Of a DNA stretch of 8,282 nucleotides, positions 2,959 to 8,282 are shown in pieces (within the stretch, counting starts at the first letter, position 1; every line of letters begins with the position of its first letter). Source of the stretch: a virus (taxonomy: Duplodnaviria; Heunggongvirae; Uroviricota; Caudoviricetes); the IMG/VR virus record IMGVR_UViG_3300028481_000082, positions 1-8,282 of that record; one strand, given 5' to 3'. The position numbers and the translations under genes were made by a program. The notes below the pieces were generated by a model. The model saw only the letters and a list, made by a program, of their open reading frames with translations. It did no database searches and had not been told where the DNA came from.

Positions 2959-3288
2959 CTATTTAATTCTCTTTTCAATGGCTGCAATTATTGCTTTTCC
3001 TGATGTTTCAGGAGATTTTGTAGCCATATAAGACGAAAAAATCATGTCGGTCATTCTTTCATAACTTACTATTTCCCACTTAGCCAATGCATGGGACAGT
3101 TTGTAGTTGTCATCAGTTAGTGCCCTTATGGAATTTTTTAAGTGTTTATTCTCTTCAGTTAATCGCGCAATTTTTGTATCAATTTCATGTGAGCGATCTA
3201 ATTCCTTAACCTGTTTCTTGAGGGCAGCTAACCCTGCATATAGTACGCAACAGGATATCCCAAGAGCGAGTACTACTATTTCTAACAC
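2959..3288 (-). CDS. Hypothetical small membrane-anchored coiled-coil protein (109 aa); accessory/moron gene, possible superinfection-exclusion or defence-associated function
   Basis: Minus-strand ORF with GTG start at 3288 preceded by a strong AAGGAGG Shine-Dalgarno (plus-strand CCTCCTT at 3294-3300, 5-nt spacer). Stop TAG is at 2959-2961. N-terminal 22 aa are hydrophobic (LEIVVLALGISCCVLYAGLAAL), followed by a K/E-rich heptad-like segment (KQVKELDRSHEIDTKIARLTEENKHLKNSIRAL). It is AT-rich relative to the flanking structural genes and convergent with gp16. Function is inference only. Confidence 0.65.
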   Translation of the reverse strand: MLEIVVLALGISCCVLYAGLAALKKQVKELDRSHEIDTKIARLTEENKHLKNSIRALTDDNYKLSHALAKWEIVSYERMTDMIFSSYMATKSPETSGKAIIAAIEKRIK

Positions 3289-3662
3289 ACCAACCTCCTT
3301 AGTTTTTCGCAGGATACCAGATGATACTTTATTGGTGGAGTGGTGTGTGAAAACGTGTCAACGACAAACCATCCACAACTTGGACGAATGATTTAGCAAA
3401 AAGTGCTATTTTTGGTGTTTGGTGTCATAGAAAAGTGAATAGCTCACTTTTCAACATTGCATGAAACTTGCAGGAAATGTGACATTACCTTATAGGTAAC
3501 TTCGGCGAAAATGCAGTAAATGTGAAACGTAATGGTTTAAACATGTCGCTAAAGTGGTTGTAAGTTAGCCTCCGAAGGATTGCTGATAGCTTTGTTATAG
3601 TATTAAATGACATTTGACATAGTTGGATACTTAGCTGTGGCTATCAAGATGGAGGTGTGTTC
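3289..3662. promoter_or_regulatory. AT-rich divergent intergenic control region with several dyad symmetries (candidate operators and promoters for both the minus-strand 109-aa gene and the plus-strand Panacea-like operon)
   Basis: 374 bp non-coding and AT-rich. Perfect 9-bp inverted repeat GAAAAGTGA-n5-TCACTTTTC at 3430-3452. Palindrome AATGT-g-ACATT at 3476-3486. Inverted repeat TTACC-ttata-GGTAA at 3485-3499. Palindrome AAATG-a-CATTT at 3605-3615, overlapping a consensus TTGACA hexamer at 3614-3619. GGAGG Shine-Dalgarno at 3651-3655. Exact -10 elements and transcription start sites are not resolvable by eye. Confidence 0.45.
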
Positions 3663-4106
3663 ATGCTTACTTGTTTTGATGTCGCCGACTACTTCCTGTC
3701 GCGGTGTGACGAGGATAGCGGTGACACAATCTCTAATTTAAAATTACAAAAGCTTGTTTACTATGCTCAGGGTTTTTCATTGGCGTTGCTTGGCGAGCCT
3801 CTTTTTCAGAATAAGATGGAAGCTTGGATGCATGGCCCTGTTGTCCCTGAGCTTTATCGCCGTTATAAACAATATGGTAATGGCGCTATCCCTTCTCCAG
3901 AGTCTTTTGATGCTGAAAAATTCAGCGAAGAACAGTTAGAGCTATTAGAAGAAGTCTGGGATGTTTTTGGGCAATTTTCTGCCTGGAAACTGAGGAACAT
4001 GACACACGAAGAGTCACCATGGAGATCAAACTATATTGAGGGTGTTGGTGGTTCTGAAATTAGCTCTAAGGAGATGGCAGAGTACTTTGCAACTCGGATT
4101 AACTAA
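3663..4106 (+). CDS. Panacea-domain (DUF4065 / GepA / SocA-like) protein, 147 aa; putative antitoxin or defence-system component
   Basis: ATG at 3663 with GGAGG 7 nt upstream. The track start at 3657 is an in-frame GTG only 1 nt from the SD, so 3663 is preferred. The protein carries motifs I associate with the DUF4065/Panacea family: SNLKLQKLVYYAQGFSLALLGEPLF and EAWMHGPVVPELYRRYKQYG. The family call is from memory of its consensus, not a search. Confidence 0.6.
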   Translation: MLTCFDVADYFLSRCDEDSGDTISNLKLQKLVYYAQGFSLALLGEPLFQNKMEAWMHGPVVPELYRRYKQYGNGAIPSPESFDAEKFSEEQLELLEEVWDVFGQFSAWKLRNMTHEESPWRSNYIEGVGGSEISSKEMAEYFATRIN

Positions 4107-4110
4107 CGAG

Positions 4111-4530
4111 ATGGCAAGAAAATCTAAAAGGATTATCCCCCCTGCTGAATCTACAGGTAAGTTAAAGTTAGGGCCGCAGTCAGGGGGGAATTCAGATCAA
4201 AAGAAACCGAAATTTTCATTCTGTTACATCCAAAGCTCTCACTGCATAACGAAATGCCAAAAAGATGAGAAAGCTGGCTTAGCTGATAAATTATACAGAT
4301 TAAGTCAACTAACATGGGCAGAGATTAAGCAGCAAGGTAGGCATAAGCTTGGATTTGAGAAGATTGCAAGGGGTGCAATTAAAGCAGGTATCCCCAGTCA
4401 TATAACGGAAGACGTAGATCATTTCTTGGCTTTTAGATTTGATGATTTGAAAGCCATGGTTGGTTATCGTCTTGGATCGACATTTTTTGTTATATGGCTT
4501 GATAGAGAGTTCAACCTATACAAGCACTAA
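4111..4530 (+). CDS. Hypothetical basic 139-aa protein translationally coupled to the Panacea-like gene; candidate toxin or effector partner, family unknown
   Basis: ATG at 4111 lies 4 nt after the upstream stop (TAA 4104-4106) with no strong independent SD, which suggests coupling. The longer track ORF from 4036 starts inside the upstream gene in another frame and is not favoured. Basic N-terminus (MARKSKRIIPP), Cys/His cluster (FCYIQSSHCITKC), and a beta-rich C-terminus (GYRLGSTFFVIWLDREFNLYKH). Followed directly by a terminator. Confidence 0.6.
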   Translation: MARKSKRIIPPAESTGKLKLGPQSGGNSDQKKPKFSFCYIQSSHCITKCQKDEKAGLADKLYRLSQLTWAEIKQQGRHKLGFEKIARGAIKAGIPSHITEDVDHFLAFRFDDLKAMVGYRLGSTFFVIWLDREFNLYKH

Positions 4531-4531
4531 T

Positions 4532-4557
4532 AAAACCCACCGTCAGGTGGGTTTTTT
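4532..4557. terminator. Bidirectional rho-independent terminator between the accessory operon (+) and mnt (-)
   Basis: Stem AAAACCCACC (4532-4541), loop GTCA (4542-4545), stem GGTGGGTTTT (4546-4555), followed by TT on the plus strand. The reverse complement also gives a hairpin followed by a U-run. The mnt stop codon (TGA, plus-strand TCA at 4543-4545) sits in the loop. Confidence 0.75.
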
Positions 4558-4794
4558 GTACAAATCCTTCAGCGTATCAAACACCATCTTCTTAACAAGA
4601 TCTGACTGCTCATCAGCGAGTCGTTCTGCATCGTCACGATATCCAGTCACAGGCGATGGTTTTGATAGAGCATCTTGGACGATTTGTAACAACTCGGAGT
4701 TCATTGATCTCCCATTCGCCTCCGCCCTGAATTTTAATTTCTCCCTTACTTCCATAGGCATACGGAAGTTAAAGTGCGGATCATCTCTAGCCAT
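4543..4794 (-). CDS. mnt: Mnt repressor (ribbon-helix-helix, Arc/MetJ family), maintenance-of-lysogeny repressor of Pant, 83 aa
   Basis: The 83-aa product MARDDPHFNFRMPMEVREKLKFRAEANGRSMNSELLQIVQDALSKPSPVTGYRDDAERLADEQSDLVKK... matches my recollection of P22 Mnt almost residue for residue. ATG at 4792-4794 with GGAGTG SD on the minus strand. Located next to its palindromic operator and divergent from arc. Confidence 0.93.
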   Translation of the reverse strand: MARDDPHFNFRMPMEVREKLKFRAEANGRSMNSELLQIVQDALSKPSPVTGYRDDAERLADEQSDLVKKMVFDTLKDLYKKPT

Positions 4795-4816: not shown

Positions 4817-4845
4817 TTGACATGATAGAAGCACTCTACTATATT
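4817..4845 (+). promoter_or_regulatory. Pant promoter (rightward; drives arc-ant)
   Basis: -35 TTGACA at 4817-4822, 17-bp spacer, -10 TATATT at 4840-4845. The Arc operator lies in the spacer and the Mnt operator just downstream over the predicted start site, as in P22 immI. Confidence 0.8.
4822..4842. promoter_or_regulatory. Arc operator (Oarc), 21 bp
   Basis: ATGATAGAAGCACTCTACTAT at 4822-4842, identical to the P22 arc operator sequence as I remember it (TAGA/TCTA half-sites), positioned between -35 and -10 of Pant. Confidence 0.85.
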
Positions 4846-4850
4846 CTCAA
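4822..4850 (-). promoter_or_regulatory. Pmnt promoter (leftward; drives mnt), overlapping Pant
   Basis: On the minus strand: -35 TTGAGA (plus coordinates 4845-4850), 17-bp spacer, -10 TATCAT (plus coordinates 4822-4827). Divergent and overlapping with Pant, consistent with the known P22 arrangement. Confidence 0.65.
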
Positions 4851-5046: not shown

Positions 5047-5113
5047 AGTGGAAGCCCCAACTGCGGGAACAGTCAGGGCTTCGGTTGTCAGTAAATCCGT
5101 GGAGAAAAACCAA
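5045..5113 (-). ncRNA. sar: sar-like small antisense RNA (~68 nt) complementary to the ant ribosome-binding site and the arc-ant intercistronic region
   Basis: P22 is known to make a 68-69 nt antisense RNA (sar) from a promoter inside the 5' end of ant. Here the minus strand has a TATACT -10 (plus coordinates 5121-5126). A transcript starting near 5113 would cover the ant ATG (5115) and GGAG (5101-5104) and contain a stable hairpin (GAAGCCC...GGGCTTC, 5051-5082) followed by CACUUU. Coordinates are approximate and inferred. Confidence 0.5.
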
Positions 5114-5114
5114 C

Positions 5115-6017
5115 ATGAATAGTATAGCAATTTTAGAAGCAGTGAACACCTCTTACGTACCATTCAACGGTCAGCAAATTATCACCGCCATGGCTGCCGG
5201 AGTTGCATACGTTGCGATGAAGCCAATCGTTGAAAACCTTGGAATGAGTTGGGGTACTCAGCAACAAAAACTTATGAAACAACTAGATAAGTTCAACTGT
5301 ATTCATATGAATATGGTTGCCGCTGATGGGAAGCTTCGTAAGCTACTCTGCCTTCCTTTGAAGAAGTTAAATGGATGGCTGTTCAGCATCAACCCTGAGA
5401 AAGTTCGAGCTGACATCCGCGATAAACTGATTCAGTACCAGGAAGAATGCTTTACTGTACTGCATGACTACTGGACAAAGGGAAAGGCAGAAAATGCACG
5501 TAAGAAAACATCTGTTGATGACAGGACTCCGCTTCGTGATGCTGTAAATATGCTAGTCAGCAAAAAGCATCTAATGTACCCAGAAGCTTACGCAATGATT
5601 CATCAGCGTTTCAATGTGGAAAGTATTGAAGAGCTTGATGCATCTCAGATACCGCAAGCCGTAGAGTACATCCACAGGGTAGTGCTTGAAGGTGAGTTCA
5701 TCGGCAAACAAGAGAAGAAAACCAACGAGCTTTCTGCAAAAGAAGCAAGCAGCCTTGTATGGCTATGGGATTATGCCAACCGCTCACAGGCATTATTCCG
5801 CGAACTGTATCCGGCGCTGAAACAAATTCAATCGAACTATTCCGGCAGATGTCATGACTGCGGTTATGAGTTCTCCCGTATTATCGATATAGCGAGAGAC
5901 GTTTTAATCAATCACTCACGAGATGTTGATATCAATGAGCCAGACGGACCAACGAATCTTTCCGCATGGATGAGACTTAAGAATAAAGAATTACCTCCTT
6001 CAGTACATAACTACTGA
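5115..6017 (+). CDS. ant: Antirepressor Ant, 300 aa
   Basis: ATG at 5115 with GGAG 10 nt upstream gives exactly 300 aa, the P22 Ant length. N-terminus [47 protein letters not shown] matches my recollection of P22 Ant. Directly downstream of arc in the immI arrangement. The track start at 5085 has no RBS. Confidence 0.9.
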
Positions 6018-6117: not shown

Positions 6118-8103
6118 ATGACAGATTCAATAAATGCCAATGTTGTAGTAAGTATGCCATCGCAACTCTTCACTATGGCTCGTTCTTTTAAAGCAGTTGC
6201 CAATGGCAAAATTTATATCGGTAAAATTGACACTGACCCGGTAAATCCTGAAAACCAGATTCAGGTTTATGTAGAAAACGAAGATGGTTCTCATGTTCCT
6301 GTTTCGCAACCAATAATCATTAACGCTGCTGGTTACCCTGTATATAACGGACAGATTGCCAAATTCGTAACTGTGCAAGGCCATTCTATGGCTGTATATG
6401 ATGCATATGGCGTACAGCAATTTTACTATCCAAACGTATTGAAGTATGACCCTGATCAGTTAAGGCAGGAGCTTGAAGGAGATAAAGGTTTTTTAATCCC
6501 TGGTGGTCAGCAGGAAAGATTTTATGACCTACGCGCATTTGTTGAGCCAGGAGACCCAGCAGCTCCAGACTACACGCAGGCTTTCAAACGCGCCATCGCC
6601 TCTGGTAACGGACGAGTTTTTGTCAACGTTCCAGTGGAATTTACAGAAGATCTGACTATCCCGGCGAAGTTCCGCGTAGATATTGGTGAATGTGGTTATC
6701 TGTACACTAACTCAGCAAAAGTACGCATTGAAGGATTTATCAATACTATCGGGGGTAATGATCCGTATCGCGGTTACATCCATCCATTTGGCGTTGACTC
6801 GTCAACAGTGGCGGGTATTTACACGATGCCTGTAACACTCATGGTTCCGGAAGATTACCGGACCATTCAGGAAGCAATTGACGATATCCCAAATAATTAT
6901 TGGCAGAGAATTATTATCTCAATTGCACCAGGAACTTATGATGAAGACATAGTAATCAGAAGCAAGAGGGGGTGCACACCTCTATTCCCACCTAGCGCAT
7001 CGCAACAAGCAAACATTGTTATAGTAAGTAGAACTACCGACAGAACAACAGTTAATGTTAGGTCAGCCCAGGTATTTTCATGCGGAGGCACACCATACAG
7101 CCCAGAGTTGCACGCTTTAAACTTTACAAATAGAACACACAGTGATGAAAATGCTTCAGTTGAATTTTATGGATGCACATCTGGCGCTGTTAATGATTGT
7201 TCATTCAATGGGGTAGGAGTTGATAAGTGTATTGAGGCATATAATAGTACAATATCAGTTGAATCATGCGATTTCGGTAACGAAATTAATGATAAAGGGA
7301 TGGTTGTAAAGCATGGAGGAGTATTAAGCTCAAACTCAACAAGAATAGGACAGGCGCTAAAGCCAATGTCTGGCACACTAAAAAGTTGGGTTGCTGTTTC
7401 GATAGGCGGTATCATTATCGGTAATGATTTTGGTATGTGCATTGGTAAAGTTGCGCAAAGTAGGGTTGATGGAGTACAGGTAGGGCTTATAACTGAAACA
7501 GCTACAAAATCAATTAATGGAGTAACATCTTCATTTACGCTTGCGACAACAAGGCACCATACTCAATTTCAAGACTATGATAAATTTACCAATAAAGTAA
7601 CCGGCTCAGGTTCAGGGTTGGAATATTATGCAGAAGGTGGATTAGTTGTAAGAGCGGGGACTGTTGGCGGTACGGCACTTGTAAGATATAAAAGAGAGCG
7701 ACGGCTTGTATTAAATTATGAAACATTTAACTATCTTGGTTTTGCTGTTGCTTATGGAATTACATCTGGAGTTAATTCACTAAATGGTTTTATAGTTTGT
7801 GGCTCCGTGGAATCAGGAAATTACTTTGGAATAAGGTATATAGGAAATGAAGCAAAAGGTATAATATGTAAGGATGGAGTGCAGTCAACGACTACATTAC
7901 TTAACAGCACAAAAACATATGGGACATGGACGTGCAAATATGTAGGAAAGGGTGACGGGCAGTTAATTATTATGCACAATGATACATATGCTGGTCATAT
8001 AAATGGAGTTAAGTTATCATCATATGATGGAACATATTTCGAGGCCTACATAACAGACGATAGAATACAGCTATTCGAAATGGATTTTATTGCAAGCGCT
8101 TAA
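6118..8103 (+). CDS. Tailspike protein (P22 gene 9 homologue), 661 aa; conserved head-binding N-terminal domain plus a divergent beta-helix receptor-binding domain
   Basis: ATG at 6118 with GGAG at 6105-6108. The N-terminal ~115 aa ([60 protein letters not shown]...[15 protein letters not shown]...NVLKYDPDQ) is clearly homologous to the P22 tailspike head-binding domain and, by memory, closer to the Sf6/HK620 type. The remainder does not resemble the P22 endorhamnosidase domain. GC drops from roughly 47-60% to roughly 30-38% from about 6950 onward. Confidence 0.93.
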
Positions 8104-8141
8104 ATCAATTGTCTGGTTAATTATAAATTGTTAAATGAAAA

Positions 8142-8164
8142 GAAGGTGGCGTTACACCACCTTC
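8142..8164 (-). terminator. Hairpin likely acting as a rho-independent terminator for a convergent minus-strand transcript downstream of the tailspike gene
   Basis: Stem GAAGGTGG (8142-8149), loop CGTTACA, stem CCACCTTC (8157-8164). On the minus strand it is followed by UUUUCAUUU. On the plus strand it is not followed by a U-run, so it is a weak terminator for the tailspike gene. Confidence 0.45.
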
Positions 8165-8282
8165 CCATCAAGCCAGTCCGCCCACCACTGCATCATTTCT
8201 CTGCGCTTATCGAGATACTGAGCATGGTTGTAAATTCAGCAAACGACGTAATGTGTTTGACAAAAAATTAGCGCAAGAAGAC

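Follow-up and report, generated by a model that had tools for sequence, protein, structure and literature searches.

The gene neighborhoods of the DUF4065 domain were surveyed by Kurata et al. (2022; PNAS 119:e2102212119; PMC8832971), who named this domain Panacea and described pairs of a Panacea protein (PanA) and a neighboring toxin (PanT). Their cluster T1 is the closest described relative of the two-gene cassette studied here, which occupies positions 3663–4530 of an 8,282-nucleotide (nt) stretch of viral DNA (Caudoviricetes; IMG/VR record IMGVR_UViG_3300028481_000082), hereafter the window. Cluster T1 includes, in Dataset S1, a pair from Escherichia coli MOD1-EC5558 (WP_089622957.1 and WP_077635758.1, gap −20) and a pair from Salmonella phage vB_SemP_Emek (YP_006560565.1 and YP_006560566.1, gap −62). 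Both entries were flagged as “Phage” and “not Toxic,” the reciprocity score for the T1 listing was 4|5, and the two PanA proteins were classed as “noNTD.” For the same pairs, Table S1 gives the predicted activity “mRNase,” the toxin as “not toxic” and the antitoxin as “n/a” (PMC8832971). Other PanA–PanT pairs formed complexes and showed type II behavior (PMC8832971), and standalone Panacea neutralizes directly (PMC10440598).

The cassette of the window consists of essentially the same genes, in the same antitoxin-then-toxin order, with a “noNTD” PanA and in a phage context. Its PanA differs by 1 amino acid (aa) from WP_089622957.1 and by 2 aa from that of Emek, its toxin by 1 aa from that of Emek, and each protein of the Emek and MOD1 versions lies 1–2 residues from its counterpart in the window. 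The published toxin calls differ in length, with 147 aa (gap −20) and 161 aa (gap −62) as opposed to 139 aa here. Since near-identical versions from Emek and E. coli stand in Kurata et al. (2022), the cassette is a re-discovery of an already known pair, both catalogued and tested. A preliminary description of this DNA had presented the pair as a candidate system and its 139-aa partner as unclassified; the pair is not an unrecognized one, and the partner is a T1 toxin with a published “mRNase” prediction. No later characterization of this pair was found in a literature search. New in the present analysis are the explicit assignment of the toxin to the RelE fold, a candidate active site, the link to the NsnC protein of the Menshen defense system, a caveat concerning the start codon, a second allele and the conserved ends of the module.

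The account that we consider probable is that the cassette is a phage-borne PanA–PanT module, in which a RelE/YoeB-like endoribonuclease would be held inactive by direct binding of the standalone Panacea protein, both proteins being encoded in one coupled operon. The observations that carry it are the domain identity of PanA, the fold and conserved residues of its partner, the linkage of the two genes, the boundaries of the module and its position in the phage genome. The features of the module are the following:

3286–3662, strand not assigned: conserved leader or divergent regulatory region (374-nt leader), from the comparison of alleles
3651–3655, plus strand: Shine–Dalgarno sequence GGAGG of panA, read from the sequence, with the ATG at 3663 following after 7 nt
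3663–4106, plus strand: panA, 147-aa standalone Panacea-domain protein, putative antitoxin or sensor (Pfam PF13274)
4107–4110, plus strand: intergenic spacer CGAG of 4 nt, without a Shine–Dalgarno sequence, read from the sequence
4111–4530, plus strand: panT (cluster T1), 139-aa putative endoribonuclease
4532–4557, strand not assigned: bidirectional intrinsic terminator, common to the convergent mnt gene, from folding and from the annotation of Emek

The open reading frame (ORF) of panA runs from the ATG at 3663 to the stop codon at 4104–4106 and encodes 147 aa. In a profile search its product matched Pfam PF13274 (SocA_Panacea/DUF4065) with E=1.8e-24 and 87.3 bits, far above the cut-off of 25.7, and the match spanned residues 28–120, equivalent to profile positions 1–112 of 113. 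It also matched phrog_1281 (E=6e-60), and no additional domain was present. The motifs LKLQKLVYYAQGF and AWMHGPVVPELY, on which the preliminary description had based its Panacea assignment, were both found, mostly at columns that are invariant or close to it in an alignment of 28 pairs. Judged by its profile match, the 147-aa upstream protein is thus a Panacea (DUF4065) protein, as had been proposed. A sequence search detected no solved structure for PanA.

The family of the partner is large and made up of free-standing proteins with lengths of ~135–145 aa; it comprises 182 clusters at 90% identity, and 1563 representatives (50% identity) were retrieved at E≤1e-3, 200 of them below 1e-30. A weak match to NCBIfam MAG6450_fam was recorded in 40 of its 48 relatives. 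The AlphaFold2 model built on these 48 relatives was confident (mean predicted local distance difference test score, pLDDT, of 87.8; predicted template modeling score, pTM, of 0.75) and comprised a basic tail of low confidence (residues 1–30) followed by a RelE/ParE-fold (BECR) domain (residues 34–139). The elements of the model were a strand (34–36), two helices (51–65 and 69–74) and strands at 83–86, 104–111, 114–121, and 124–131, which is the N-terminal strand, two helices and antiparallel sheet of the RelE/ParE superfamily. When this model was searched with Foldseek, YoeB was the top match (probability 0.92), with HigB, YafQ, and RelE next in order. According to its model, the 139-aa protein is therefore a RelE/YoeB-type BECR-fold protein, and the resemblance to RelE and ParE that had earlier been called vague turned out to be real, both in the fold and in conserved polar residues. 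The fold is common to the type II toxins RelE, YoeB, YafQ, and HigB, whereas sequence-profile similarity to them is lacking, and the 139-aa protein has in addition the basic N-terminal tail of ~30 aa and an insert of ~17 aa between β2 and β3. Furthermore, toxins of the RelE type are paired with RelB, YefM, DinJ, or HigA, and the 139-aa protein with a Panacea protein.

Conservation was counted over 260 relatives. G81 and E83 were kept in 100% of them, R109, D131, Y137 and the C-terminal H139 in 98%, R120 in 92% and H78 in 88%. The conserved residues fall on β2, β3, β4, β5 and the C-terminal tail; among the polar ones, E83 lies on β2, R109 on β3 and R120 on β4, followed by D131 and by the C-terminal Y137-x-H139. 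The catalytic residues of YoeB (E46, R65, H83, Y84), RelE, and YafQ sit on these same secondary-structure elements. E83, R109, R120, D131, and Y137-x-H139 are thus proposed as a candidate endoribonuclease site. The preliminary description had also pointed to a basic N-terminus and a Cys/His cluster; the basic tail was indeed present, and the cluster did not hold as a conserved feature (C45 62%, C49 76%, H44 16%, C38 5%). Given this poor conservation, a zinc or other metal site at the cluster is unlikely and was rejected.

A relationship at the sequence level was found with an effector of the Menshen system. The PADLOC model of NsnC matched the 139-aa protein over positions 178–279 of 284 (E=5.9e-6), and the same C-terminal match was obtained in 47 of 48 relatives, with a best E of 1.7e-10. 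This C-terminal domain of NsnC (“PB-BECR1”) has been described as a YafQ-like BECR ribonuclease (RNase) with an H-R-H triad (PMC12065111; NAR 2025, gkaf357). H78, R109, and H139 of the 139-aa protein may correspond to this triad. Whereas NsnC carries an N-terminal domain of the inactive-PIN type, the 139-aa protein is free-standing and lacks it; likewise, the neighbors in Menshen are nsnA (ParB-DUF262) and nsnB (ABC ATPase), and those of the cassette are panA, mnt, and phage genes. The possibility that the cassette itself is a Menshen system was excluded, only the C-terminal part of NsnC being matched and neither nsnA nor nsnB being located beside it. Panacea goes unmentioned in the main text of the Menshen paper (NAR 2025, gkaf357), as does the term BECR in that of the NetFlax paper (PMC10440598); neither main text, it appears, draws attention to the homology between the T1 toxin and the NsnC effector domain.

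The linkage of the two genes was analyzed in 83 loci, 80 of them from a genome scan of 185,579 species and the other three being distant members (an Acidobacteria metagenome-assembled genome, a cyanobacterial one and an Aeromonas P2-like prophage), each of which has a Panacea gene directly upstream. A close homologue of PanA (E from 1e-38 to 1e-71) was encoded immediately upstream and on the same strand in 80 of the 83 loci, and the other three were cut by the end of a contig, so that all 80 testable loci were linked. Their hosts included Cyanobacteria, Acidobacteriota, Desulfobacterota, Planctomycetota, Armatimonadota, Firmicutes, Bacteroidota, and one ANME archaeon, and most members of the toxin family are chromosomal and lie outside phages. 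The pair was also present in 76 of 80 viral contigs. For 122 related pairs the start could be assigned, and here the genes were separated by a median of 4 nt; the gap was 10 nt or less in 91% and negative (overlapping genes) in 35%. The near-universal presence of an upstream Panacea gene together with short or negative gaps is characteristic of a two-protein module that co-evolves and is translationally coupled, and the architecture that Kurata et al. (2022) used for PanAT systems, two genes conserved across species with the partner within 100 nt, was found here. An association of this extent goes well beyond chance. In Trichormus sp. NMC-1 (L008, 5956–6405) the first pair is followed ~3 kb downstream by another PanA homologue (E=3e-43), which may represent an additional Panacea module of this neighborhood.

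Within the window, the toxin ORF runs from the ATG at 4111 to the stop codon at 4528–4530 and encodes 139 aa; no usable Shine–Dalgarno sequence precedes it, and we infer that its translation is coupled to that of panA. Both ORFs, their spacing of 4 nt and the lack of a strong second ribosome-binding site were as previously reported. Alternative starts for the toxin are located inside panA in another frame (window 4036–4110: TTG 4045, GTG 4048, and TTG 4087), and the database and published calls of this ORF (161, 160, and 147 aa) begin there. In the 161-aa and 147-aa calls, upstream TTG starts add 22 or 8 residues, which are read out of frame from the 3′ end of panA. The shorter ORF is supported over these longer calls by the NCBI annotation (PGAP) of E. 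coli E50, which has exactly the same panA and 139-aa ORFs, and by the invariant M1 of the family alignment.

The ends of the module were defined by comparison with a second allele, which occupies the same slot in phages EC.P3 and E212 (L088/L089, 3264–4135) and in many viral contigs. The amino-acid identity between the two alleles was 71% for PanA and 51–58% for the toxin (51% in EC.P3/E212), and most of the conserved residues were kept, R120 being replaced by K in EC.P3/E212. The coding DNA was just 38–84% identical, with values of about 57–68% for the coding sequences of the two allele groups, whereas the leader (3286–3662) and the terminator-containing 3′ end (4510–4559) were 94–100% identical, with 96% over the last 50 bases. 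Nonsynonymous divergence (dN) between the two phage alleles amounted to 0.23 for panA and 0.44 for the toxin gene, synonymous sites being saturated. The DNA beyond both ends of the module was unrelated between the alleles. When the leader was compared with that of EC.P3, the identity was 98–100% over 3319–3518 and fell to 84% by 3718, and the genes flanking the EC.P3-like leader were unrelated or diverged. In phage records this leader occurred only together with this cassette, and in viral contigs it accompanied both allele groups. Given that both ends are conserved, that the outside DNA is unrelated and that the leader is restricted to the cassette, the mobile unit is delimited by these alignments to about 3286–4559. 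Its guanine-plus-cytosine (GC) content was 38–43%, as compared to 47–50% in the structural genes.

The leader should contain the promoter of panA and also the promoter, Shine–Dalgarno sequence and GTG start of the leftward ORF that precedes it. No Rfam match was obtained in the leader, and its folding signal was weak (z-scores of about −2.2 on either strand). At the other end, the hairpin CCCACC-GTCA-GGTGGG-TTTTTT (4536–4557) had a folding energy of −15.8 kcal/mol (z=−3.8), the stop codon of mnt lies within its loop, and the same hairpin carries a terminator annotation in phage Emek; the strong terminator noticed earlier behind the pair was thereby confirmed. The conserved ends could represent a linker for recombination or else a regulatory or RNA element under constraint.

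According to the account preferred here, the cassette would be an accessory (“moron”-type) PanA–PanT unit of P22-like phages and a member of T1. It would be transcribed as a single unit from the conserved leader to the shared terminator, with panT translated by coupling to panA. The free 139-aa effector would cut RNA, with mRNA on the ribosome as the most likely substrate, and translation would then stop, whereas the standalone 147-aa PanA would bind the effector directly and keep it inactive. Release or activation of the effector would take place when PanA is lost or when the complex is perturbed by an infecting phage. For the prophage, the benefit would be defense against superinfection or stabilization (prophage retention), a role put forward by analogy with other prophage toxin–antitoxin modules and with the Menshen effector. 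The RNase activity, its target, the direct neutralization, the trigger and the biological role are all put forward as inferred parts of this scheme.

Several results weigh against this account. First, the Emek and MOD1 toxins were “not toxic” upon expression from pBAD33 behind a strong Shine–Dalgarno element in E. coli BW25113 (PMC8832971), a difference from the RelE-type toxins; because of this score, neutralization of the two was never tested. The preliminary description had counted the lack of a growth defect from the toxin alone against its own proposal, and this lack is what the published tests report, for N-terminally extended ORFs. The C. cadaveris toxin, the only T1 member toxic in that study, was not rescued by its PanA (PMC8832971). 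Second, intact toxin genes occur where panA is not functional. In one of the four exceptional viral contigs (L107, 3688–4423) panA was replaced except for its last ~25 codons and the toxin gene was intact, and in Escherichia phage phiv205-1 (L086, locus 4264–4710) a 1-nt deletion in the A5 run of panA (GAAAAATTC to GAAAATTC) shifts the frame after about residue 85, the toxin gene again being intact. Either an error in sequencing or a natural knockout of the antitoxin could account for the frameshift, and intact toxin genes of this kind fit a harmless “toxin.” Third, Pfam has no family, RelE/ParE families included, for the 139-aa protein or for any of its 48 relatives, no useful sequence match to PDB chains was obtained with the protein or with its family profile, and hhalign of the family profile against single E. 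coli YoeB and YafQ sequences gave no significant alignment. Since none of these comparisons gave a significant result, the membership of the RelE superfamily rests on the fold and not on the sequence. Finally, a scan for the sigma-70 consensus upstream of panA detected no promoter, the same scan having also missed the clear terminator.

The published negative result is not decisive, because the constructs tested encoded toxins of 161 aa (Emek, with 22 additional N-terminal residues) and 147 aa (MOD1, with 8), not the 139-aa protein (PMC8832971). The authors of that study also stated that non-toxicity in E. coli leaves toxicity in the native host possible (PMC8832971). With ORFs started 8 or 22 codons early, a confident RelE-type model, a catalytic set that looks intact and homology to the Menshen effector, this negative seems worth revisiting. 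If the native 139-aa protein is active, or can be activated by a phage, this would provide a mechanism for T1, a class of Panacea partners that is large and as yet unvalidated.

The strongest of the alternatives, to which we give a tentative and clearly lower probability, is a trigger-gated defense in place of a classical toxin–antitoxin pair, in which the BECR protein would be inert alone and become an active nuclease only after PanA has sensed a phage component, so that PanA would be a sensor or activator and more than an inhibitor. The lack of toxicity of the toxin alone and the intact toxin genes without a functional panA are both in line with this model, and the authors of NetFlax have proposed Panacea as a sensor (PMC10440598). 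Moreover, the homologous Menshen domain is a regulated effector of a defense system, and the cassette is located in the prophage slot that P22 uses for superinfection exclusion. Nevertheless, the negative toxicity tests were carried out with N-terminally extended ORFs, and none of the PADLOC models matches PanA. In the literature searched, no phage-defense test or phenotype was found for any T1 pair, nor any Panacea-based phage defense. In addition, loss of panA was mostly accompanied by a damaged toxin gene, as expected of a harmful gene: in three of the four exceptional viral contigs (L130, L139, and L143, around 4000–4320) panA was gone and the toxin was reduced to N-terminally truncated remnants of 76–107 aa. 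A more elaborate version, which we regard as just as speculative or slightly more so, is an infection-gated prophage defense with Panacea as the phage sensor and a RelE-fold nuclease that stays silent until triggered. It would place PB-BECR1 under two unrelated controls, Panacea in one case and the ParB/ABC-ATPase pair of Menshen in the other, and would make the 374-nt leader part of a lysogen-specific control. Such a system would explain harmlessness on overexpression.

It is improbable that PanA is a proteolytic adaptor that delivers its partner to ClpXP instead of sequestering it, in the manner of the type VI system SocAB of Caulobacter, from which the Pfam domain takes its name. The antitoxin of SocAB has the Panacea domain in common with PanA, the SocA_antitoxin model is the best NCBIfam match of PanA (E=7e-20), and the disordered basic N-terminal tail of the partner might serve as a degron. 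However, the score of this match was 71.4 bits, below the equivalog cut-off of 190, the partner is a RelE-fold protein unrelated to SocB, and the PanA–PanT pairs tested by Kurata et al. (2022) form complexes and were described as type II. The first two of these points rule out the classification of the cassette as a SocAB type VI system. Slightly less probable still is that the partner, rather than being an RNase, poisons gyrase in the manner of ParE or is a RelE-fold protein without catalytic activity; the near-invariant residues lie on the elements that are catalytic in YoeB, RelE, and YafQ, which favors an RNase over a ParE-like poison.

The module is inserted in a well-defined phage locus. 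The window comprises the late and immI region of a P22-like phage (Lederbergvirus) or prophage, with the following features in addition to those of the cassette:

22–1101: gene 20, end portion
1098–2939: gene 16
2959–3288, minus strand (leftward): 109-aa ORF
4543–4794, minus strand: mnt, convergent with the cassette
between mnt and sar/ant: arc
5047–5114, minus strand: full-length sar antisense RNA (RF00262, 91.5 bits)
5085–6017: ant
6118–8103: tailspike gene

The order in the window is 16, leftward ORF, panA, toxin, mnt, arc, ant, and tailspike, and that in P22 is 16, sieA, orf59a, mnt, arc, ant, and 9. The cassette therefore occupies the interval between gene 16 and mnt, which is the sieA interval of P22-like phages, as the preliminary description had recognized. 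It has no homology to sieA and lies on the opposite strand. Near-identical cassettes are carried by the phages Emek (Salmonella) and phiv205-1 (Escherichia) and by 48 of 5426 complete E. coli genomes, and the cassette was absent from many P22-like phages. If the native 139-aa protein is active or can be activated by a phage, the sieA slot of P22-like phages would gain a second kind of superinfection defense. The least probable alternative, a service to the lytic program of the phage (e.g., shut-off of host translation) and not to the fitness of the lysogen, could appeal to the adjoining late and immI genes and to the lack of a lysogenic promoter in the scan, and it is opposed by the own leader and terminator of the cassette, by the oppositely oriented ORF that separates it from gene 16, by the mostly chromosomal distribution of the family outside phages and by its absence from many P22-like phages.

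The 109-aa ORF (2959–3288, minus strand) corresponds to P22 sieA in position and orientation. It has an apparent hydrophobic segment at its N-terminus and weak coiled-coil-type matches (phrog_8100, unknown function), and a homology to SieA was ruled out by BLASTP (E=0.31). Other genes are found at this position in Emek and EC.P3. Downstream of the cassette, Pant-like and Pmnt-like promoters were observed face to face at 4817–4850 (TTGACA-17-TATATT and TTGAGA-17-TATCAT), which, together with sar, is typical of the immI region of P22. At the end of the window, the GC content of the C-terminal part of the tailspike gene (7000–8200) dropped to 38%, whereas the N-terminal 120 aa of its product showed 72–98% identity to their counterparts in other P22-like phages; this combination suggests that the receptor-binding module of the tailspike has been swapped.

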